Below are positions 2,506-58,266 of a DNA stretch of 64,000 nucleotides, one piece after another. How positions within the stretch are numbered: position 1 is the first letter of the stretch; each line of letters begins with the position of its first letter. The notes below the pieces were generated by a model. That model was not told the DNA's origin. It worked only from the letters and a program-made list of their open reading frames with translations, and ran no database searches. A program made the translations under genes and the position numbers. This DNA is from an uncultured Brevinematales bacterium (GTDB taxonomy: Bacteria > Spirochaetota > Brevinematia > Brevinematales > JAOACQ01), in the NCBI GenBank assembly GCA_964533855.1, contig CAZHNM010000002.1, forward strand, positions 16,862 to 80,861, in the 5' to 3' direction.

Positions 2506-4266
2506 ATGATCCTCACATTAATAATCTGGGTATGGATAGCTGTAGTTTGTTATATTTACGGTTATATGTCGATAAGGCTTTTCAGTAAGATTTTCAACCT
2601 GGAAAACCGGGATGTGCATGCCCCTGTTGTAATAATACTCGGTCTCTGCCTGATTGGAACGGCAGTTTCATATTTTTCAATTTTTATCAAAACAGGGCTT
2701 GCCGTTAATATCATACTTGTCCTGCCGGCTGCGATATATTCGGCTTTAGACTTTAAAAATATAAAAATAAGTTTAAAAGCCTTTTTTAACGAATTAATGG
2801 ATAAAAACATATATTTCTCGTTTTTTTTTCTGGTATTGTTTTTTATAATTCTCTTCGAGACTTCGATTTACATTCCAAAATTTTATGACTCGGCATTGTA
2901 TCATGCCCAGAGTATTCACTGGATAGAGAAATATAAAGCTGTTCCGGGCCTGGGGAATTTCGAGAAAAATCTCTCATATAACAACAGCTGGTTCCTGCCG
3001 TCTGCGTTTTTCAGCTTATCCTTCCTTGGCTTCAGATCTTTTCATGTCCTCAACGGCATATTCTTTTTGACAGGCGCTTTTTATTTCCTTGGAGCTGTGG
3101 ACGATTTTTTCAGGAAAAAGAAAAGAATATTCAGCGGATTGATATGCATGTTTGTAATACCGGCGGCATTTTATCTATATGCAAATTTTTCATCTTCACC
3201 GGGGACAGATATGCCGACATCGATATTAATATGGACTATCTTCATATTGTATATAGATAAGTTAGAGCTTAAAGGAACCTATGACTTTGATATCGCCAGC
3301 GTAGTCATTGTTGCTTTAGCGTCCTATCTTATTACAGTTAAACTTTCGGGGATTCCCGTGTTCTTAATCGCAGCATATATTATATTCCGGGAATTTGCAT
3401 CGAGGAAAATCATGGCCCTGAAGCTTGTTTTATTAAGCTGTCTGATTTTCATACCATGGATTATCAGAAGCTTTATTATTTCAGGTTACGGTGTATACCC
3501 GGTTATTCAAACAGGAATTTTCAATTTCGACTGGAAAGTCCCTGAAAAGAATCTTCTTGCCGATATCCAGGGTATAAGGAATTGGGCGTTTCCTGCAGGA
3601 AACCGGCCGTTCTTAAATTACCTGTTTTTATGGCTCAAAGGTCTTAATATACAATATAAATTTGTGATCTGGCCCCTGTTTTCATTTGCGGCTTTATCTC
3701 TCTTATACTATTTAGCCGGATTATTTTTTGAATTCAGAAAAATACCCCTTTTCTTAAAAAAGTATAAAGATTACATGATCTGCTATTTGACAGTGTTTTG
3801 CGGAGCCGCTTTCCTGTTTTACAGCGCCCCGGATGTCCGCTTCGGCGCCGCTATTTTTACTCTGCAATGCCTCCTGATTTTCATTCCCGCATTGATGCCT
3901 CTTTTAAAAAGAAGTCAGCAACCTCTCATGATTTCTAAATATTATCTGACAGTACTGCCTGTGTTAATGATCATTTTCGAAATTTTTCTTTTCAACAGGT
4001 ATTTTTATTCCGGCAGGCAGATGCTTTTTGCCAGGGACAGCATATCCGATATTGCCGGACGTATTTTAATCCCCGCTGATTATGGAAAAAGCCCCGAAGG
4101 AGTTTCAGAATATACCGCCGGTGATAAATTTCATTATTATATCCCCAATAAATTTACATCCGCCTGCTGGTACGATCCGTTCCCCTGCACTTCTGAACTT
4201 TTCGGAATTCTCGAAACGAGGGGAGAAAGCGCCCAGGACGGATTCAGGATAAGGATCGAAAATTGA
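2506..4266 (+). CDS. large polytopic membrane protein (possible glycan polymerase or glycosyltransferase; function unknown)
   Basis: 586-aa ORF with an AGGAG Shine-Dalgarno 6 nt upstream of the ATG. More than 10 hydrophobic segments are followed by a soluble C-terminal tail of about 90 aa. Confidence 0.55.
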   Translation: MILTLIIWVWIAVVCYIYGYMSIRLFSKIFNLENRDVHAPVVIILGLCLIGTAVSYFSIFIKTGLAVNIILVLPAAIYSALDFKNIKISLKAFFNELMDKNIYFSFFFLVLFFIILFETSIYIPKFYDSALYHAQSIHWIEKYKAVPGLGNFEKNLSYNNSWFLPSAFFSLSFLGFRSFHVLNGIFFLTGAFYFLGAVDDFFRKKKRIFSGLICMFVIPAAFYLYANFSSSPGTDMPTSILIWTIFILYIDKLELKGTYDFDIASVVIVALASYLITVKLSGIPVFLIAAYIIFREFASRKIMALKLVLLSCLIFIPWIIRSFIISGYGVYPVIQTGIFNFDWKVPEKNLLADIQGIRNWAFPAGNRPFLNYLFLWLKGLNIQYKFVIWPLFSFAALSLLYYLAGLFFEFRKIPLFLKKYKDYMICYLTVFCGAAFLFYSAPDVRFGAAIFTLQCLLIFIPALMPLLKRSQQPLMISKYYLTVLPVLMIIFEIFLFNRYFYSGRQMLFARDSISDIAGRILIPADYGKSPEGVSEYTAGDKFHYYIPNKFTSACWYDPFPCTSELFGILETRGESAQDGFRIRIEN

Positions 4267-4297
4267 AAAAAAACGCCCTTCTTCATATAATCTTTTC

Positions 4298-5521
4298 ATG
4301 AATTTTAATAAGGTCGTAATAAGAAAGGGAAATGACAGCGCCGGATTGATGAAAGATCTTTTAAAGGAGTTTCCGGCAAACAGCCTGGGAATAGGGGGCC
4401 GGCGCGTCCTTATTAAGCCCAATGCAGGCAGAATGGCGGGACCGGGGCTCGGAATAAACACAAGCCCGGATGTGATCGGATCAATACTGGATTATTTTCT
4501 GGAAAGCGGAATAAAAAACATTGCCGTCGGAGAAAGCCCGATAGTGGGCGTGAAGGCTCTCGAATCGCTGGAAATGAGCGGAATAGCCCGGGAAGCAGGG
4601 ATCAGAGGGGTCGAACTTATCGATTTCGACGCTTCAGGGTATCAAACTATCGATATTCCTGAGGGCAGAGTAATAAAAAAATTAAGAGTCTGCAAAGAAG
4701 TCCTTAAAAACAATTTTATAGTTTCCGTTCCGGTAATGAAAACCCATATGCATACCCAGGTTTCCCTGGGCCTTAAAAATATGAAGGGCTGTCTGCATGG
4801 AAGGGAAAAGGTAAAGCTGCACCAGCTTCCTCCGTTTGGTCTGGTCGAGGAACCAGGCAAACCTCTCGATTATGCAATAGCGGACATGGCAGGGATCCTC
4901 ATGCCGGATTTCACGATTATAGACGGGACAATAGCCCAGGAAGGGATGGGGCCAAGCGGCGGAAGCGCCAAAAATGCGGGCCTGGTCATTGCTTCCTTGA
5001 ACTGCCTTGCGGCCGATACTGCCGCTGTCATGCTCATGGGCTTTAAACCGGAGGAGGTGTTCCACCTCCGTGAGGCATGGAAGATCCTCGGTTCCAAAGA
5101 CAGCAGGTATTTGCACAAAGGCATGATAGAAGCCGAGCCTGCAGATTTTATGAAATGGGTATCCCCTTTCGAAGCTCCACCGAAAAAAATATCGCTTGAA
5201 TATTCCAATGTAATAGTTGAAGATAAAGATTCATGCAGCGCATGCCTCTCGACTGTACTGATGTTTCTGAAGAGATATTACTCCGACTTTGCAGACTATC
5301 TTGGGCCCGGAAAGCCGCTGCGGATAGCCCTTGGGAAATCCACAGGCAAACAGCCCCCGGGGACTCTGCTAATAGGAAACTGTGCGATCAGGGCCGGGGA
5401 TAAAGAAGGCGGCGTTTTAATCAAGGGCTGTCCCCCCGTTTCTTCCCAGATCATCGAAGAAGTGGAAAAGCTATTTCCAGAGCTGAAGAAGAAGGGATTG
5501 AAGATTAACGGTTCTTTGTAG
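4298..5521 (+). CDS. DUF362 domain-containing protein
   Basis: 407-aa ORF. VLIKPNAG and MKTHMHTQVSLGLKNMKGC are motifs I associate with DUF362. The C-terminal part is Cys-rich (CSAC, GNCA, GCPP). Confidence 0.65.
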   Translation: MNFNKVVIRKGNDSAGLMKDLLKEFPANSLGIGGRRVLIKPNAGRMAGPGLGINTSPDVIGSILDYFLESGIKNIAVGESPIVGVKALESLEMSGIAREAGIRGVELIDFDASGYQTIDIPEGRVIKKLRVCKEVLKNNFIVSVPVMKTHMHTQVSLGLKNMKGCLHGREKVKLHQLPPFGLVEEPGKPLDYAIADMAGILMPDFTIIDGTIAQEGMGPSGGSAKNAGLVIASLNCLAADTAAVMLMGFKPEEVFHLREAWKILGSKDSRYLHKGMIEAEPADFMKWVSPFEAPPKKISLEYSNVIVEDKDSCSACLSTVLMFLKRYYSDFADYLGPGKPLRIALGKSTGKQPPGTLLIGNCAIRAGDKEGGVLIKGCPPVSSQIIEEVEKLFPELKKKGLKINGSL

Positions 5522-6225: not shown

Positions 6226-6813
6226 TTACCTGCTTATTAATCCCATAAAAAAGTCTAAAAGTTCATCCCTGTACCTTTCCAGGACAGGGCCTCCTCCGGA
6301 GAACATGTCCCTGTTTACAAGGTAGTAATGTATAAGGCCTATCCATGTATTGAAAACAAGGTGAATGGGGACTCTTTTCAGCCGGCCGGCGGCTATATCT
6401 CTTTGGACCGCTCCGTTCAGGTGGTAGGAGACGGCGGACTGGATCATTAAGAGCTCCTGCCTTGCTTGAGCGGGAAGAAGAGGACCTTCGGTCACGAGCC
6501 TTGTATAAAAAGATTCAAAAAGTGAAAGCCCGCTGATATGGGCCTCGAGTATTTCGCGGGTGTTTCCGGCCATGGCTTCCAGCTCATGAATACGTTCGGT
6601 GATTTTTCGGCCGAAATCCTTTACAGCTTCTACAAGGAGGATTTCCCTTGTTGGAAAATGCACAAAAATAGTTCCATGCGCCAGGCCGGCCGCCGAAGCT
6701 ATGTCCGATGTTTTAGCTTTAATAATTCCGTCTTTGACAAACTGGGCCTGGGCGGTCTTAATAATCCTGAGCCGTGTAGCGTCTTTACGGCCGCTTCTTG
6801 TTAATGCCGGCAT
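6226..6813 (-). CDS. TetR/AcrR family transcriptional regulator
   Basis: 195 aa with an N-terminal HTH (KTSDIASAAGLAHGTIFVHFPTRE). A GGAG RBS and an operator-like palindrome lie upstream. Confidence 0.85.
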   Translation of the reverse strand: MPALTRSGRKDATRLRIIKTAQAQFVKDGIIKAKTSDIASAAGLAHGTIFVHFPTREILLVEAVKDFGRKITERIHELEAMAGNTREILEAHISGLSLFESFYTRLVTEGPLLPAQARQELLMIQSAVSYHLNGAVQRDIAAGRLKRVPIHLVFNTWIGLIHYYLVNRDMFSGGGPVLERYRDELLDFFMGLISR

Positions 6814-10251: not shown

Positions 10252-11676
10252 ATGATTAAAGAAGAATGCGGGGTATTCGGGATATTCGGATTAAGTGAAT
10301 CATCAAGGTACGTTTATCTCGGTTTGACTGTACTTCAGCACAGGGGGCAGGAATCCTGCGGCATTGTAAGTTCTGACGGTTCATTTTTATATAAACAGGT
10401 AGGCCTCGGCCGGGTAAGCGACTTTTTTGACGAGACAAAACTTTCCTATCTCCAGGGATACAGTTCAATAGGGCATGTAAGGTATTCAACTACCGGATCT
10501 CCGACCCTTGTAAACGCCCAGCCGATCACTGCATCGGTGTCAAAGGGGGCTATTGCGATAGCTCACAACGGCAATATTACAAACGCCAACACCATCAGGA
10601 ATGAGCTGATGGAAAAGGGCATGAGTTTTCAATCATCCAGCGACAGCGAGGTAATAATACAGCTCATTGCAGGGGCTCCATGCGATAACCTTGTTGAATC
10701 TGTAAAATGGGCTCTTGAAAAACTCGAGGGATCATTCTCGATACTCGTTCTGTCGAAAGATATGCTCATAGCGGCAAGGGATCCTATGGGATTCAGGCCT
10801 CTTTCAATGGGGAAAATCGGTACGAATATTCCAGAAATGGGCGACACGATAGTATTTGCATCCGAGGACAGCGCATTCGCAATAGCTGAAGCCGTGAAAA
10901 TAAGGGATGTAAATCCCAATGAGATAGTAGTTATAACCGAAAGAGGGACTCAAAGCCTGAAAATCACTGAAAAAACTGTAAAACAGAATCACTGCGTATT
11001 CGAACTGATATATTTTTCAAAACCCTCTTCAAAAGTTTTCGATAAGAGCGTATATAATTACAGGTTTGATATAGGAAGAAAACTTGCCAGGGAACACCCG
11101 GTCCAGGCCGATTATATTATACCTGTGCCGGATTCCGGAATGGTATCAGCCTTAGGTTATTCCCATGAATCGAAGATCCCCCTTGCCTTAGGTTTGATAA
11201 GAAGCCATTACATAGGCAGGACATTTATCGAGCCATCTCAAAAAATCAGGGATTTCGGCGTCAAGATGAAATTCATCCCCGTAAGGGAAATTATCGAGGG
11301 AAAGAGGGTCGTCCTGATCGACGATTCCATAGTCCGGGGAACTACTTCGCGTAAAATAGTCAGTCTTGTGAGAAGCTGTTCGCCTAAAGAGGTTCATTTC
11401 CGCGTCGCTTCGCCGCCAGTGCGTTATCCCTGCTATTACGGCATCGATTTTTCAACCTACGAGGAACTGTTAGCCAATAAAACCGGTTCGACCGAAGAAA
11501 TCGCGAAGTTTATAGGCGCCGAATCTGTCGGCTATATAAGCTCCGAAGGTCTTTTTGACGATGATGCTTTGAGCATTAATTACTGCAAGGCCTGTTTCGA
11601 CGGCGATTTTCCTACACCTATAAGCGCAATTACAAAAGGCGGTTTTGAAAATGAGATCAGACAAAACGCATTTTAA
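10252..11676 (+). CDS. purF: amidophosphoribosyltransferase
   Basis: 474 aa. The N-terminus reads MIKEE then CGVFGI (Ntn catalytic Cys after a short propeptide). It has the PRPP loop VVLIDDSIVRGTT and C-terminal Cys residues. Confidence 0.95.
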   Translation: MIKEECGVFGIFGLSESSRYVYLGLTVLQHRGQESCGIVSSDGSFLYKQVGLGRVSDFFDETKLSYLQGYSSIGHVRYSTTGSPTLVNAQPITASVSKGAIAIAHNGNITNANTIRNELMEKGMSFQSSSDSEVIIQLIAGAPCDNLVESVKWALEKLEGSFSILVLSKDMLIAARDPMGFRPLSMGKIGTNIPEMGDTIVFASEDSAFAIAEAVKIRDVNPNEIVVITERGTQSLKITEKTVKQNHCVFELIYFSKPSSKVFDKSVYNYRFDIGRKLAREHPVQADYIIPVPDSGMVSALGYSHESKIPLALGLIRSHYIGRTFIEPSQKIRDFGVKMKFIPVREIIEGKRVVLIDDSIVRGTTSRKIVSLVRSCSPKEVHFRVASPPVRYPCYYGIDFSTYEELLANKTGSTEEIAKFIGAESVGYISSEGLFDDDALSINYCKACFDGDFPTPISAITKGGFENEIRQNAF

Positions 11677-22477: not shown

Positions 22478-22644
22478 ACGGGAAAACCCCTGTTCATATT
22501 TAACATCAAATGACCGATTATTATAAGGGCGGTTCCAATAACCAGCAATGTTGCTAACTAGGTGTTTTGTAATTATAATTAAATCGCCCGAGGGTCGCAA
22601 CAATAATAATAAAAATAAATTTAAAAGTCAGGGGTTATTAAAGA

Positions 22645-40217: not shown

Positions 40218-41132
40218 ATGTTTGAGGTTTTTTATCAGGTTCTTCTGCCTGTTGTCCTGATTTTTGCCGCCGGTTTTCTCATAGGCAGGCTCTTTCCGAT
40301 AAACAGGAAATCTTTTTCAATAATATCCCTGTACCTCCTGACGCCGGCTCTGGTATTTTCCTCGATTTACGGATACAGGGATTTTTTTTCAGGGACTACC
40401 CTTAATATTTTCATTGTCATTTCATTAATTATCTTGTTAACAATTGCGGCAGTCGAGATATTGGATCTGATCTTTCGTTTTGAAAAGAGTTTTAAGACGG
40501 TGCTCCTGCTATCGCTGATCCTGACAAATTCAGGGAATTTCGGACTTCCCGTCACACAATACGCCTTCGGAATACAGGGCCTTCTAACAGGAACCCTCGC
40601 TATGGTTTTTTATATATTTTATACTCACACAGCAGGAGTTATTATAGCCGCTTCCGATAAAAGCTCCGTTAAAGAATCTTTCTTCAAGATGCTTCAAATA
40701 CCTGTTTTTTATGCCTTTGCAGCCGCTATGGCCCTGAATTATTTTAAAGTACCTATACCAGCCCAGATTTCGGGCAGCATTCGGGACTTAGGCTACAGCG
40801 GAATAACCCTGAATCTTCTTTTCGTTGGCATTACGCTCTCGGATATAAAAATAAACAGGAATATACTTGGCGTTTCACTGATAAGCATAGTGAAATTGGT
40901 TGTAATACCTCTCGCGGCTTTTCCTATTCTCGTATTATCAGGCTTAAAAGGACTTGATTTGAAAGTAACATTGACCCAGATTGCCATGCCCTCGGCGATT
41001 TACTGCACGATTCTGGCAAGCCATTTCGAAAGCGATGTCAAATTAGCAAGCGAAATCGTCCTGGCGTCTCTTCTTCTAAGTATTGTAAGCCTTTCGGGTC
41101 TTATATATTTGCTTAACTTATTTATAAAATAA
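40218..41132 (+). CDS. AEC (auxin efflux carrier) family transporter
   Basis: 304 aa with about 10 hydrophobic helices. The N-terminus MFEVFYQVLLPVVLIFAAGFLIGR is typical of the family. Confidence 0.7.
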   Translation: MFEVFYQVLLPVVLIFAAGFLIGRLFPINRKSFSIISLYLLTPALVFSSIYGYRDFFSGTTLNIFIVISLIILLTIAAVEILDLIFRFEKSFKTVLLLSLILTNSGNFGLPVTQYAFGIQGLLTGTLAMVFYIFYTHTAGVIIAASDKSSVKESFFKMLQIPVFYAFAAAMALNYFKVPIPAQISGSIRDLGYSGITLNLLFVGITLSDIKINRNILGVSLISIVKLVVIPLAAFPILVLSGLKGLDLKVTLTQIAMPSAIYCTILASHFESDVKLASEIVLASLLLSIVSLSGLIYLLNLFIK

Positions 41133-41140
41133 ATACTACC

Positions 41141-41251
41141 GGGCACTTCTAATAACTGCCCCTCTGGGGCAGCAAGGTAGTGCCCATTGGGCGGAATTAT
41201 TAGATTTATTACTAAGTTTGTTTTCAAAAATCCAGTTTTTGGAACCGCCCT
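41141..41251 (+). repeat. copy 1 (compact, 111 nt) of a two-copy structured intergenic module
   Basis: Four segments are identical to copy 2: GGGCACTTCTAATAACTGCCCC, GGTAGTGC, CATTGGGCGGAATTATTAGAT and AGTTTTTGGAACCGCCCT. Internal complementarities are GGGCACT/AGTGCCC, CTGCCCC/GGGGCAG, TCTAATAA/TTATTAGA and GGGCGG/CCGCCC. Confidence 0.85.
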
Positions 41252-41328
41252 ACCGATAATCAGATATTAGTACTTGTGCTAAGCCTCTGTTCTATGATAA
41301 AATACTGTATTGAGAAGGGAGTTTCTTA

Positions 41329-55182: not shown

Positions 55183-55323
55183 GAAATAGTATAGTCAGCC
55201 CCGTGAAAATTTTCAAACCTGGAAGGAGGAGTCGATATCAAATTCTTGAGTTTTTAATCCCGAATAAATATAATATTACCCTGTAATGGGCACTTCTAAT
55301 AACTGCCCCCCCCTTACGGGGAC

Positions 55324-55338
55324 CTTCGCTTCGCTTCG
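55324..55338 (+). repeat. (CTTCG)x3 pentanucleotide tandem repeat inside module copy 2
   Basis: CTTCGCTTCGCTTCG is read directly from the sequence. It is flanked by a direct repeat of GGGGACCT (55318-55325 and 55345-55352); the first copy overlaps the first two bases of the tandem repeat. Confidence 0.85.
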
Positions 55339-55365
55339 GCCTTTGGGGACCTGCTTGGTAGTGCT

Positions 55366-55434
55366 TGTCCTGGGGCCAGTTAGGCACCAGGGCCCACCTG
55401 TCCTGGGGACTGGCGCCAGGCCAGGCACCAGGGC
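55366..55434 (+). repeat. imperfect tandem duplication inside module copy 2
   Basis: Two units start with TGTCCTGGGG (55366, 55399) and end with AGGCACCAGGGC (55382-55393, 55423-55434). Each unit contains complementary CCTGG/CCAGG. Confidence 0.8.
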
Positions 55435-55524
55435 ATTGGGCGGAATTATTAGATCCATTAATATTGATTGTTTTTCAAGAACAAGTTTTTGGAACCGCCC
55501 TAAAAGTTATCGAGAGGTATAAAA

Positions 55525-56619
55525 ATGACTCGTAATTACGCTCTTACCAGCCCATACGGCGAAAAGGATATCTCGGGATGCGGCCTTATCGGATTTATTA
55601 ACAGGGACGGGATAAAATCAACAGGAACCGATGCTATAAAAGGCATTGAACATATGAAAGACAGGGGAAACGGCCTGGGCGGAGGTTTCGCCGTTTACGG
55701 CCTTTACGATACATACAAGGATTATTATGCTCTGCATGTGATGTATGACGATAACGCTTCGATGGAAGCCGGAAAGGATTATATAAAAAAATATTTCGAT
55801 ATCGTATATGAAGACCAGATCCCGACAAGGAAGAACAAAACGATCAGCAAACCCCCCATTTTTTACAGGTATTTCTGCCGTGTAACGGACGCCCAGCTTG
55901 GAAATGAAAAAGAGGACGATTACGTCGTTTCGCAAGTGCTGTTTATAAACAAGAATATCGACGGAGTTTTTGTAGTTTCGAGCGGCAAGAATATGGGAGC
56001 GTTCAAAGGAGTAGGCGAAGCTCATGAGATCGGAGATTTTTTCAGGCTTGACGAATACCGGGCCCATACATGGATCGCTCACAGCAGGTTTCCGACCAAC
56101 ACTCCAGGCTGGTGGGGAGGCGCTCACCCGTTCACTATTCTTAATTATTCCGTTGTCCACAACGGCGAAATTTCATCTTACGGAATTAACAGAAGATACC
56201 TTGAGAGTTTCGGTTACGAATGCACAATGAGGACCGATACCGAAGTCGTCGCTTATGCCGTCGATCTCCTGAAAAGGAAGCATAACCTTTCCTGGGATCA
56301 GATAGCCAAAGTTTTTGCGGCGCCGTTCTGGAAAGATATTGACGCAATGGATGAGAAATCGAAGGCTCTTTACAAGGAGATAAGGATTGTATACGGGAGC
56401 CTGCTTCTCAACGGGCCCTTTGCTTTCATAATCGGCTTCGACGGCGGGTTTATGGCACTCTCCGACAGGGTGAAGCTACGGCCCCTCGTAGCTGCCGAGA
56501 GCGGCAAAACCCTCTATGTATCGAGCGAGGAGGGGGCGATAAGGCGCATTAACGGCAAACTTGACCGGGTATGGCACCCTGAAGCCGGCGAGCCCGTTTT
56601 CGGCTACCTGGAGAATTGA
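55525..56619 (+). CDS. class-II (Ntn) glutamine amidotransferase, stand-alone glutamate synthase GltB domain-1-like protein
   Basis: 364 aa with a GAGAGG RBS. The candidate catalytic Cys lies in DISG-CGLIGFI, after an 18-residue leader. HSRFPTNT and VHNGEISSYG motifs are typical of GltB/PurF-type amidotransferases. Confidence 0.7.
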   Translation: MTRNYALTSPYGEKDISGCGLIGFINRDGIKSTGTDAIKGIEHMKDRGNGLGGGFAVYGLYDTYKDYYALHVMYDDNASMEAGKDYIKKYFDIVYEDQIPTRKNKTISKPPIFYRYFCRVTDAQLGNEKEDDYVVSQVLFINKNIDGVFVVSSGKNMGAFKGVGEAHEIGDFFRLDEYRAHTWIAHSRFPTNTPGWWGGAHPFTILNYSVVHNGEISSYGINRRYLESFGYECTMRTDTEVVAYAVDLLKRKHNLSWDQIAKVFAAPFWKDIDAMDEKSKALYKEIRIVYGSLLLNGPFAFIIGFDGGFMALSDRVKLRPLVAAESGKTLYVSSEEGAIRRINGKLDRVWHPEAGEPVFGYLEN

Positions 56620-56622
56620 CTC

Positions 56623-58266
56623 TTGAAGGGCCCTGGTTTTCTCTCTCTCTTTTTGTTTATAGCAACCCCTCTTTTTTCTACTGAGATTTTTACAAAAGGG
56701 ATCAATCTGACTGAATGGTTCCAGGAACCTGCGGTCAGATCAATACAGGCAAACAAATACACGAAAAAGGATTTTGAGGATATCAAAAGTCTCGGATGCG
56801 ATGTCATCCGCCTTCCGATCAACCTTCATGCAATGACAGGCGGAGCTCCCGATTATATAATAGATCCCATGTTATTTAAATTCCTCGACAGGGCTGTGGA
56901 TATATGCGAAGAGCTCAATATTTCGCTTATCCTTGACAATCATTCAGATTCCGATAAAATGACCGATCCTTCTGTCGGAGATATTTTATCAAAGATATGG
57001 ACACAGATAGCCGGCCATTATAAAAGCCGGGGCAGTTTACTCTATTACGAAATACTCAACGAGCCGCATGGGATCAGTCCGGCAGCCTGGGGCATGATCG
57101 AGAAAAATGTTATAAATAAAATAAGGCAGATCGATAAAAAACATACTATAATAGCAGGCGGAGCGGGCTGGAACGATATTGATTCGCTCTCGAAACTTCC
57201 CGATTTCGATGACGATAATATCATCTACACATTTCACTTCTACGACCCTATGCTTTTTACACACCAGGGAGCCGCATGGTTAAAACCGCCTCAGACATCC
57301 CTTAAAGGCATCCCTTATCCCTACGACAAAAAGAGGATGCCTCCCTGTCCTTCCGATTTGTTGAATACATGGGTGCAGAAAAAATTAAGCATGGAATATC
57401 CCTCTGAAGCCAATAACGGAGCGCTTGAAAAGACAATCCTTAAGGCAGTAGATTTCAGGGCTAAAACAGGCAAAATAGTTTATTGCGGTGAATTCGGCGT
57501 TTTAAATAAAAATGCGCAGGATGGAGACAGGTTTTACTGGTATGATTCTGTAAGAAAGATCCTAGAGAAGTATTCGATCCCCAGGACTTCCTGGGATTAC
57601 AGAAGCTCTTTCGGGTTATTCAAAAAGGATTCGGATGAAGTATTCGATTACGACCTGGATATTCCCATAGTCATGGCTCTCGGCCTTAACCCGCCCTCCT
57701 TTAACGAGCTCAAAATAAAACCTGAAACTAACGGTTTTTATATATTCGACAATTACCCGGCCCCGGGATTAGCAGTAGCATCCTATACTATCAACGGCTC
57801 TATCGGCCTGTATGACACAGAATCCCCTGAAAACGGTAAATATTCAATAGATATGGATAACCTTGACCGTTACGACCGGCTTAATTTTTCCTTCAAACCG
57901 GCGAAGGATCTATCGGAACTGCTTGAAAGAAAATGCAGCGTTGTGATAAAATTGAAATTGAAGCCGGGGTTTAAAAATGTTGATATCAGGTTTCTCTCCG
58001 TCAGGAAAGACGATCCCGTTTCAAGGCCCTGGAGAATCAGATACACACTTGATGATAAGACCCTTAAAAAAAGCGGAGACTGGCAGACTGTTTATGTCGG
58101 CCTCGATAAATTCACCGAACAGGGCGCATGGAAAGACAAATGGTATAATCCGGAGGGGCTTTTCGACTGGCGCAGCATAACAGGTTTCGAAGTTGTTTCT
58201 GAGAATGAAAAATGGCAGAACACGGGTCTTCTCATAGCACAGATCAGCCTTTCACTGATAGAATAG
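56623..58266 (+). CDS. secreted glycoside hydrolase family 5 (cellulase/mannanase-like) with a C-terminal beta-rich domain
   Basis: 547 aa with a TTG start 7 nt after GGAGAA and a signal-like N-terminus. The GH5 acid/base motif is YEILNEPHG and the nucleophile motif is YCGEFGV. Confidence 0.8.
   Translation: MKGPGFLSLFLFIATPLFSTEIFTKGINLTEWFQEPAVRSIQANKYTKKDFEDIKSLGCDVIRLPINLHAMTGGAPDYIIDPMLFKFLDRAVDICEELNISLILDNHSDSDKMTDPSVGDILSKIWTQIAGHYKSRGSLLYYEILNEPHGISPAAWGMIEKNVINKIRQIDKKHTIIAGGAGWNDIDSLSKLPDFDDDNIIYTFHFYDPMLFTHQGAAWLKPPQTSLKGIPYPYDKKRMPPCPSDLLNTWVQKKLSMEYPSEANNGALEKTILKAVDFRAKTGKIVYCGEFGVLNKNAQDGDRFYWYDSVRKILEKYSIPRTSWDYRSSFGLFKKDSDEVFDYDLDIPIVMALGLNPPSFNELKIKPETNGFYIFDNYPAPGLAVASYTINGSIGLYDTESPENGKYSIDMDNLDRYDRLNFSFKPAKDLSELLERKCSVVIKLKLKPGFKNVDIRFLSVRKDDPVSRPWRIRYTLDDKTLKKSGDWQTVYVGLDKFTEQGAWKDKWYNPEGLFDWRSITGFEVVSENEKWQNTGLLIAQISLSLIE

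Follow-up and report, generated by a model that had tools for sequence, protein, structure and literature searches.

Small non-coding elements whose terminal inverted repeats (TIRs) match those of an IS5-family insertion sequence (IS) are represented by BrickBuilt, MITE293 and MITE700 of Porphyromonas gingivalis and by ATR of Neisseria, whose parent is ISNme1. All of them are intergenic and occur in multiple copies. Within the IS5 group, for which a 4-bp target duplication is typical (ISfinder classifications), IS1169 and IS1168 of Bacteroides fragilis encode one DDE transposase in about 1.3 kb, have short imperfect TIRs and use a 4-bp AT-rich, TTAA-like target. BrickBuilt contains an internal repeat array of variable number (PMC4596501). 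Chunjie, a MITE of Geobacter uraniireducens, was recently active, has size variants and was inserted into an operon that it did not disrupt (PMC10969869, citing Chen et al. 2008). The Correia (CREE/NEMIS) elements of Neisseria and the ERIC elements of enterobacteria are small inverted-repeat elements, which are often part of mRNAs, with hairpins that serve as RNase III or RNase E substrates, or which supply promoters (PMC10969869).

The 64-kb stretch of DNA analysed here (the window) contains a structured intergenic module in two copies, and comparison with related sequences identifies both as copies of a 110-bp MITE derived from an IS5-family IS, i.e. as mobile DNA. Like BrickBuilt and its counterparts, this MITE is non-coding (its copies, 76 to 213 bp long, contain no ORF), intergenic and multi-copy, with TIRs matching those of an IS5-family IS. 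Its variable GC-rich hairpin units parallel the BrickBuilt array, but they are hairpins present 0-3 times, whereas the array is a long 23-nt minisatellite, and there is no sequence similarity between the TIRs (GGGCACTTC... in the window MITE, GAGACCTTTGCA in BrickBuilt). The window family has clean 4-bp duplications and a parent IS with identical ends, whereas in BrickBuilt the duplications are irregular and the resemblance to IS elements stops at the TIRs. Chunjie resembles copy 1 of the window, which lies in the 80-nt spacer of a DUF4921-transporter-ADH-phosphatase gene string that is probably co-transcribed; it differs in sequence, host and size (178-235 bp). Correia elements duplicate TA and have no known autonomous parent of the IS5-family type.

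The two copies in the window

Copy 1 is the compact, 110-bp form of the MITE (GGGCAC...CCGCCC) and occupies positions 41141-41250 of the plus strand (nhmmer E 5e-35 against the family core). It is flanked by the target-site duplication TACC at 41137-41140 and 41251-41254, as had been noticed in the preliminary description. That description had placed the module at 41128-41254; the true borders are slightly narrower. Copy 2, an expanded form of 213 bp with the same ends, occupies 55288-55500 (plus strand) between TAAT at 55284-55287 and TAAA at 55501-55504, a target-site duplication with one mismatch. The TAA/TAAT ambiguity at this copy led to consideration of a duplication-free insertion of the IS200/IS605 type, which was ruled out by the family-wide 4-bp duplications.

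The four segments reported to be common to the two copies were found to be exact. They are a 22-mer (41141-41162 and 55288-55309; no chance match in 100 shuffles), GGTAGTGC (41176-41183 and 55357-55364, read directly), a 21-mer (41185-41205 and 55434-55454) and an 18-mer (41234-41251 and 55484-55501), and they exceed chance by far. These segments are 100% identical, and the sequence between them has diverged; in principle, the identity could reflect selection beyond transposase-binding sites.

The 18-mer has a third copy in the window, with two mismatches, at 22526-22543 on the minus strand. It belongs to an element at 22527-22603 (minus strand), which ends in TTGGAACCGCCC, is flanked by TTAT on both sides and matches the right end of the MITE at 16 of 18 positions; its nhmmer match to core positions 37-111 is weak (E 0.16). 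The element is present in a 94% relative (L030) and absent from an 80% relative (L031). Tentatively, it is probably an old, 5'-truncated relative of the MITE. Neither a transposase gene nor a full-length IS was found in the 64-kb window, which carries only the miniature derivative.

Empty sites, dispersed copies and the parent insertion sequence

Both window sites are polymorphic for the insertion, being filled in the window and empty, with a single target, in relatives. At the transporter-ADH site, three relatives (L023, L024 and L025) read ...AAATAC-TACC-GATAATCA... in place of the TACC-(110 bp)-TACC of the window. At the amidotransferase site, L006 and L007 read CCCTG-TAAA-AGTTATCG as against TAAT-(213 bp)-TAAA in the window; the amidotransferase encoded there is 98% identical to the window protein, yet the MITE is lacking. 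It is also absent upstream of the amidotransferase gene in L003 and L001, so that the element is missing upstream of the ADH or amidotransferase orthologues in seven related loci. The empty sites in close relatives indicate ordinary mobile DNA rather than a dedicated regulatory RNA.

Searches outside the window revealed many more copies. The 22-nt left end gave 15 exact matches, on both strands, in two Spirochaetota MAGs and four in metagenome contigs, and further diverged copies were detected by nhmmer. At least nine copies were found in MAG bin.1.3, and three MITEs plus three IS copies in bin.1.133, again on both strands. A perfect 4-bp duplication flanked 13 of the 16 complete copies: TTAA six times, TTTA twice, and ATTA, ATAT, TATG, TCAA and TACC once each. 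Among the metagenome copies, TTAT was seen at L026 (IS) and L027 (MITE) and TTAA at the L029 IS. Every copy is intergenic; three are sense and five antisense to tandem flanking genes, and three lie between convergent genes. The adjoining genes are unrelated and include those for GH3, ABC ATPase, cysteine protease, ECF sigma factor, HydF, GNAT, GT2, TetR and SerRS.

These results bear directly on the reading favoured in the preliminary description, according to which the module is a cis-regulatory RNA (a riboswitch or a protein-binding leader) controlling the ADH-like and the amidotransferase genes, possibly by nitrogen status. Each of the two window copies immediately precedes a plus-strand gene and points the same way, copy 2 has a predicted promoter before it and the start codon after it, genes for GlnE and an NtrB-like kinase are nearby, and the folds of the two copies are more stable than those of shuffled sequences (z -3.4 and -2.6). 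However, orthologous genes in relatives, with proteins 80-98% identical, lack the element, other copies are antisense, between convergent genes or beside functionally unrelated genes, and perfect 4-bp target-site duplications are present. Furthermore, the ends of an IS that encodes a transposase consist of this same sequence, and in up to half of the copies helix 1 is disrupted with no compensating change. With Rfam 15 there was no hit in the whole window at gathering thresholds, and searching both copies at permissive E-values returned only miRNA/snoRNA noise far below threshold, i.e. no meaningful match. In the covariation analysis 90.6% of the cells were paired as compared to 90.2% in shuffled controls, a weak test with sequences as similar as these; the compensatory cells were three, all of them in the small hairpin of L016b. 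The copy count, which had been named beforehand as a check that could refute a riboregulator, gave many copies in mixed orientation with target-site duplications, as for mobile DNA, and so went against that reading. We regard a dedicated regulatory RNA as extremely improbable, and it was the alternative offered in the same description, a MITE recognized by its TACC flanks and imperfect inverted-repeat arms, that proved right.

Two related candidates were rejected. An NtrC/NrpR-type operator or a nitrogen regulon, suggested by the neighbouring GlnE, NtrB-like kinase and amidotransferase genes, was dismissed because other copies flank unrelated genes. As a sigma-54 -24/-12 promoter, TGGAACCGCCCT was discarded by inspection, the GC dinucleotide 10 nt after GG being missing at all three window sites.

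Full-length IS copies were found at L001 (4955-6234, 1280 bp, TTAA duplication) and L026 (242-1544, 1303 bp, TTAT duplication), each with one ORF of 350 amino acids. The transposase scored 248.3 bits against NF033581 (IS5 family transposase; cut-off 140), remained below the cut-offs of the IS1182 and IS982 models, and contained the Pfam domains DUF772 and DDE_Tnp_1. By these matches the parent element is assigned to the IS5 family. Its closest named elements are IS1169 and IS1168, which it resembles in organization, size, TIRs and target; amino acid identity of about 48% to their transposases indicates that the IS is undescribed. Positions 41141-41240 of copy 1 are 92% identical to IS positions 1-99, and the MITE is made up of this stretch of the IS and its final 17-18 nt, joined across an AGTTTTT microhomology. 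From this structure the MITE is almost certainly a non-coding internal-deletion derivative of the 1.28-1.30 kb IS5-family IS found in related uncultured (Brevinematia-like) Spirochaetota.

IS200/IS605 elements and REPs are not known to make a target duplication. An IS200/IS605-derived PATE, or a REP/BIME moved by a Y1/RAYT tyrosine transposase, would share with the window element the subterminal hairpins, the GC-rich palindromic interior and the intergenic site. Against this origin, the copies are flanked by 4-bp duplications that vary in sequence, TIRs are present, and the full-length relatives encode a DDE transposase of the IS5 family, not a Y1 enzyme, which leaves it with next to no probability.

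Internal architecture of the element

The left TIR, GGGCACTTCTAATAACTG (41141-41158, plus strand), and the reverse-complemented right end, GGGCGGTTCCAAAAACTG, have 13 of 18 positions in common. The first 12 positions of the left TIR (GGGCACTTCTAA) showed no variation in all 16 aligned copies. Both full-length IS copies finish in 18 nt that are 100% identical to the right TIR, CAGTTTTTGGAACCGCCC (41233-41250, plus strand), which includes the AGTTTTT microhomology, the joint of the MITE-forming internal deletion.

A subterminal hairpin, CTGCCCC-TCT-GGGGCAG (41156-41172, plus strand), is shared with the full-length IS, from whose end immediately 3' of the transposase gene it is inherited. In the diverged L016b copy the hairpin is retained via compensatory changes (CCGCCTT/AAGGCGG). 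These changes in one diverged copy indicate that some structural constraint exists on the hairpin, at the DNA or the RNA level. The hairpin could plausibly be the transcription terminator of the parent transposase gene: the L016b copy has TTTTT after it on the transposase-sense strand. It was not flagged by a simple terminator scan.

The subterminal sequence recurs inside the element as an inverted copy, GGGCGGAATTATTAGA, at 41189-41204 (plus strand, read directly), which occurs also within the IS end in L001 and L026. The complementarities proposed for copy 1 are present, and their 'nested and pseudoknot-type' arrangement is that of the IS end, with its TIRs and subterminal palindromes, the inverted copy GGGCGGAATTATTAGA being the source of the 'pseudoknot-like' pairing.

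Copy 2 owes its additional 103 nt to GC-rich hairpin units, the number of which differs between copies. The variable region (55310-55433, plus strand) comprises CCCCTTACGGGGAC, (CTTCG)3 at 55324-55338 (detected by TRF) and two CCTGTCCTGGGG...GGCACCAGGGC-type units, each about 39 nt long. These units recur in other MITE copies, 0 to 3 times. Outside MITEs none of the longer units was found; the sole 13-mer match there, with one mismatch, is at window position 11275 on the minus strand. At the other extreme, the minimal copy, L014 (76 bp), consists of part of the left half, an extra GC-rich unit and the right terminus, and has a perfect TTAA duplication, which fits a requirement for the ends and not for the fold.

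Of the IS end on the 3' side of the transposase gene, the MITE retains the first ~99 nt, with the terminal repeat, the GC hairpin and the inverted subterminal repeat. If provided in trans, a DDE transposase of the IS5 family would bind the GGGCnnTTCnAAnAACTG termini and excise the element or copy it; insertion at AT-rich, TTAA-like 4-bp targets would follow, with duplication of the target. For such mobilisation the polymorphic insertions are indirect evidence. Copy 1, in the intercistronic spacer between the transporter and ADH genes, and copy 2, in front of the amidotransferase gene, would both be passengers, probably co-transcribed with the host genes, and a regulatory effect, if any, would be a by-product of insertion.

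Copy 2 and expression of the amidotransferase gene

For the amidotransferase gene a sigma-70-type promoter, TTGAGT-17-TATAAT (10/12 in a consensus scan), was predicted at 55246-55274 (plus strand), upstream of the insertion, and the predicted promoter sequence occurs also in relatives without the MITE. Some 6 nt lie between the predicted transcription start and copy 2, whose end is separated from the ATG at 55525 by 23 nt, as originally described. This position between the predicted promoter and the start codon makes an incidental effect of copy 2 on expression possible.

Secondary co-option of the MITE would go further. Its hairpins could alter mRNA stability, processing or translation, in the 5' UTR (copy 2) or in the spacer (copy 1), as is reported of Correia and ERIC elements, which are a plausible model, by analogy, for side effects of copy 2 in the predicted 5' UTR; or else the TTGGAA terminus could provide the -35 box of a hybrid outward promoter. 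Apart from the location of copy 2, such a role is favoured by the minimum-free-energy fold, in which the left end of the MITE (CUUCU) pairs with the GAGAGG Shine-Dalgarno region, and by a hybrid promoter-like site (TTGGAA-18-AATAAT) formed at L016b. Other MITE families are documented to affect expression by way of promoters and of RNase III/E processing (PMC10969869). However, the scans called no outward promoter-like or terminator-like site in either window copy, and the insertions are polymorphic among close relatives, which argues that they are recent and not conserved. Co-option is considered unlikely. A more specific version, in which copy 2 has become fixed in the strain within the 5' UTR of the glutamine-amidotransferase gene next to glnE and was co-opted as a structured leader for translation or mRNA decay, and in which, separately, the hairpin units (0-3 copies) arise by an undescribed amplification process that tunes the effect, would be more doubtful still and is put forward only as speculation.

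The main value of the analysis is a correction: a highly structured, exactly repeated intergenic module directly upstream of genes resembles a novel riboswitch, but the comparative data identify it as mobile DNA. Neither the MITE family nor the IS5-family element from which it derives, both from uncultured Brevinematia-like Spirochaetota, had been described before. The family is now defined by its ends, the TTAA-like 4-bp target duplication, the deletion junction and the variable internal hairpin units, a definition useful for annotating Brevinematia-like MAGs and for masking false-positive ncRNA predictions. The polymorphic insertions provide strain markers, and copy 2, in the predicted 5' UTR, offers a natural experiment on MITE insertion and the expression of a nitrogen-metabolism gene.

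Insertions at two orthologous sites

The 22-mer GGGCACTTCTAATAACTGCCCC occurs exactly twice in the window, at 41141 and 55288 (chance expectation none). The 21-mer CATTGGGCGGAATTATTAGAT also occurs exactly twice, and the 18-mer AGTTTTTGGAACCGCCCT has two exact occurrences plus a third with two mismatches on the minus strand (22526-22543). Copy 1 (110 bp, 41141-41250) is bordered by TACC on either side, and an ATG at 55525 lies 23 nt past the end of copy 2 (213 bp, 55288-55500). The repeated segments, the TACC flanks and the distance to the ATG noted in the preliminary description were all found in the sequence.

That description favoured a cis-regulatory RNA, possibly a riboswitch, and named a MITE (a short non-coding transposable element) as the alternative. 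The RNA folds of both copy regions were more stable than shuffled controls (z -3.4 and -2.6). The proposed Rfam check yielded no RNA family: the whole window had no match in Rfam 15 at gathering thresholds, and permissive E-values around either copy gave just sub-threshold miRNA and snoRNA noise. Copy 1 separates a membrane transporter gene (Mem_trans) from the Fe-ADH gene, in a plus-strand string of DUF4921, transporter, ADH and GAF-SpoIIE phosphatase genes; copy 2 has a divergent GlnE-like gene on one side and, on the other, the gene of a 364-aa class-II glutamine amidotransferase. A weak third site is upstream of a histidine kinase gene, whose homologues are annotated as NtrB in Brevinematia. 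Because of these nitrogen-related neighbours (GlnE-like, amidotransferase, NtrB-like kinase) a regulatory element was initially attractive. A sigma-54 promoter was rejected, the -12 GC being absent from all three window sites.

Relatives of the amidotransferase and ADH genes were fetched with their flanks, and the orthologous sites were compared. In the related loci L006 and L007 (protein 98% identical) the amidotransferase site reads ...ATATAATATTACCCTG-TAAA-AGTTATCGAGAGGTATAAAAATG with no element, as against ...ACCCTG-TAAT-[213 bp]-TAAA-AGTTATCGAGAGG... in the window; the 88% and 85% relatives likewise lack the element. At the ADH site three relatives (protein identity 88-91%) have an 80-81 nt spacer, ...AAATAC-TACC-GATAATCA..., where the window has TACC-[110 bp]-TACC. 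The empty sites with a single 4-bp target indicate that each module was inserted precisely and that its target was duplicated. Gene content beside the copy 2 site also varies among close relatives: in the window as in L006/L007 the next gene after that of the amidotransferase encodes a GH5 cellulase (56623-58266), and in the related locus L003 a TetR gene takes its place.

A dispersed family and its IS5-type parent

In a species-representative genome collection the 22-nt left end had 15 exact matches, all in two uncultured Spirochaetota MAGs of one sample series (MFD03726.bin.1.133 and bin.1.3), and four further matches were found in JGI metagenome contigs. Since a profile made from the compact copies picked up additional diverged members in the fetched loci (e.g. 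L016 6601-6711, E 2e-17), the exact-match copy count is a lower bound. Every copy extracted that was complete (76-213 bp) started with GGGCAC and ended with AACCGCCC. The flanking 4-bp repeats were identical in 13 of 16 complete copies (TTAA six times, TTTA twice, ATTA, ATAT, TATG, TCAA and TACC once each), the remaining three mismatching at one or two positions. All copies were intergenic; between tandem genes three were sense and five antisense, and three more lay between convergent genes. The adjoining genes code for a GH3 hydrolase, ABC ATPase, cysteine protease, ECF sigma factor, HydF, GNAT, GT2, TetR regulator and seryl-tRNA synthetase. Locus L016 carries two inverted copies 195 bp apart, 6295-6405 (minus) and 6601-6711 (plus); the latter (L016b) is strongly diverged, yet retains both termini and, through compensatory substitutions, the subterminal hairpin.

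Dispersed copies, mixed orientation, unrelated neighbours and 4-bp duplications form the very pattern that the preliminary description had set against its riboregulator, which was rejected; for both window copies a riboswitch is ruled out by the empty orthologous sites and this mobile-element copy pattern.

Four left-end matches extend into long elements. Full-length insertion sequences are present in the related loci L001 (4955-6234, 1280 bp, ends GGGCACTTC... and ...GGAACCGCCC, TTAA/TTAA duplication) and L026 (242-1544, 1303 bp, TTAT/TTAT duplication), and L029 contains the same element as L026 with a TTAA/TTAA duplication. The L001 and L026 elements each encode, on the opposite strand, one 350-aa protein, the two being 80% identical. 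The protein scored 248 bits (cut-off 140) with the IS5 family transposase model NF033581 of NCBIfam, fell under the cut-offs of the IS1182 and IS982 models, and has the Pfam domains DUF772 and DDE_Tnp_1. The nearest annotated elements in a plasmid collection were IS1169 and IS1168 of Bacteroides fragilis (~48% identity). Copy 1 aligns with positions 1-99 of the L026 element at 92% identity, the final 18 nt of copy 1 and of the IS are the same, and (C)AGTTTTT belongs to both matches. It follows that the MITE arose by internal deletion across 7-8 bp of microhomology, with loss of the transposase gene. The window itself contains neither a transposase gene nor a full IS. The MITE alternative was thus borne out by empty sites, 4-bp duplications, dispersed copies and a parent IS; sequence comparison confirmed, as additions to it, the IS5-family parent, the TTAA-like 4-bp duplication and the deletion junction.

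In bin.1.133 (L001) only ~860 bp separate the orthologous amidotransferase gene from the full-length IS downstream of it, in the same neighbourhood where the window has a MITE. In another locus, L021, the flank ~40 nt left of the GGGCAC end of a full-length IS holds short repeated CCTAAGGGACC / CCCTAAGGGAAC units resembling the GC-rich hairpin units inside the MITEs.

Internal structure and a probable degenerate relative

The terminal inverted repeats GGGCACTTCTAATAACTG and GGGCGGTTCCAAAAACTG agree in 13 of their 18 positions. The predicted GGGCGG/CCGCCC and TCTAATAA/TTATTAGA pairings both stem from a stretch at 41189-41204 that repeats the terminal sequence internally in inverted orientation and that the IS end has as well. 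In the IS, the CTGCCCC/GGGGCAG hairpin closely follows the transposase stop codon on its 3' side. When the four proposed helices were counted on a 16-copy alignment, 90.6% of cells were paired vs 90.2% after shuffling, and helix 1 was disrupted without compensation in as many as half of the copies. Compensatory changes numbered just three, all of them in L016b, where the small hairpin is CCGCCTT/AAGGCGG. Because L016b preserves the pairing by such changes, the hairpin appears to be under some structural constraint. As it is followed by TTTTT on the transposase-sense strand of L016b, we infer it to be the terminator of the transposase gene; a basic terminator search gave no call at this hairpin. 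The 76-bp copy of L014 (part of the left half, an extra GC-rich unit and the right terminus, with a perfect TTAA duplication) is consistent with the ends being needed and a global fold not.

In the alignment of all copies, size differences stem from GC-rich hairpin units, which sit at fixed places within the element and are present 0-3 times per copy. One unit type (~17 nt, CCCCTTACGGGGACAAG) resembles a tandem duplicate, since diverged, of the CCCCTTTGGGGCAGCAAG hairpin unit that belongs to the element itself, and the other is ~39 nt, CCTGTCCTGGGGACTGGCACCAGTCCAGGCACCAGGGC (CCTGTCCTGGGG...GGCACCAGGGC). Such units account for the 103 nt by which copy 2 exceeds copy 1; the interior of copy 2 (55310-55433) has one CCCCTTACGGGGACAAG-type unit, a (CTTCG)3 run and two ~39-nt units; they also occur in L010, L012, L013, L018, L020, L022 and L027. 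In the ~190 kb sampled they were essentially confined to MITEs, the exception being a one-mismatch 13-mer at window 11275 (minus strand). BrickBuilt of Porphyromonas gingivalis is an earlier example of an IS5-type MITE with a variable array of repeats in its interior (PMC4596501).

The third site (22527-22603, minus strand, 77 bp), upstream of the NtrB-like kinase gene, ends in the MITE right terminus TTGGAACCGCCC, has TTAT/TTAT flanks and matches the MITE core weakly (E 0.16). It is indel-polymorphic, present in a 94% relative (L030) and absent from an 80% relative (L031), and is tentatively regarded as probably an old, 5'-truncated, degenerate relative of the MITE. A separate 49-nt direct repeat (1115-1163 and 4263-4311, identity 80%) includes the promoter-like module TTGAAA-17-TATAAT with ATGAATTTTAATAA 6 nt further on, and precedes two unrelated genes, 1150-2493 (no Pfam match) and 4298-5521 (DUF362). 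The arrangement suggests promoter duplication, with leaderless starts and a common N-terminus, MNFNK/MNFNN.

Possible effects on host genes

A sigma-70-type promoter is predicted at 55246-55274 (TTGAGT-17-TATAAT, 10/12 match) and is conserved in relatives without the insertion. Transcription of the amidotransferase gene from it is inferred to start near 55281; in that case copy 2 would lie within the 5' UTR and be transcribed as ~217 extra, structured nt. The minimum-free-energy fold pairs the left end of copy 2 with the GAGAGG ribosome-binding region. At the position of copy 1, relatives have an 80-nt spacer between cistrons, and a scan called neither a promoter nor a terminator there; the situation resembles that of Chunjie in Geobacter (PMC10969869). 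Correia and ERIC elements are known to affect mRNA stability or translation (PMC10969869), and by analogy the window MITEs may possibly do so. Since the insertions are polymorphic, they cannot, on the comparison with relatives, be a conserved regulatory device.

MITEs are a kind of element already well known, and the family member described here is new. The finding is of use for annotation, and it cautions that structured repeats should not be called novel RNAs.
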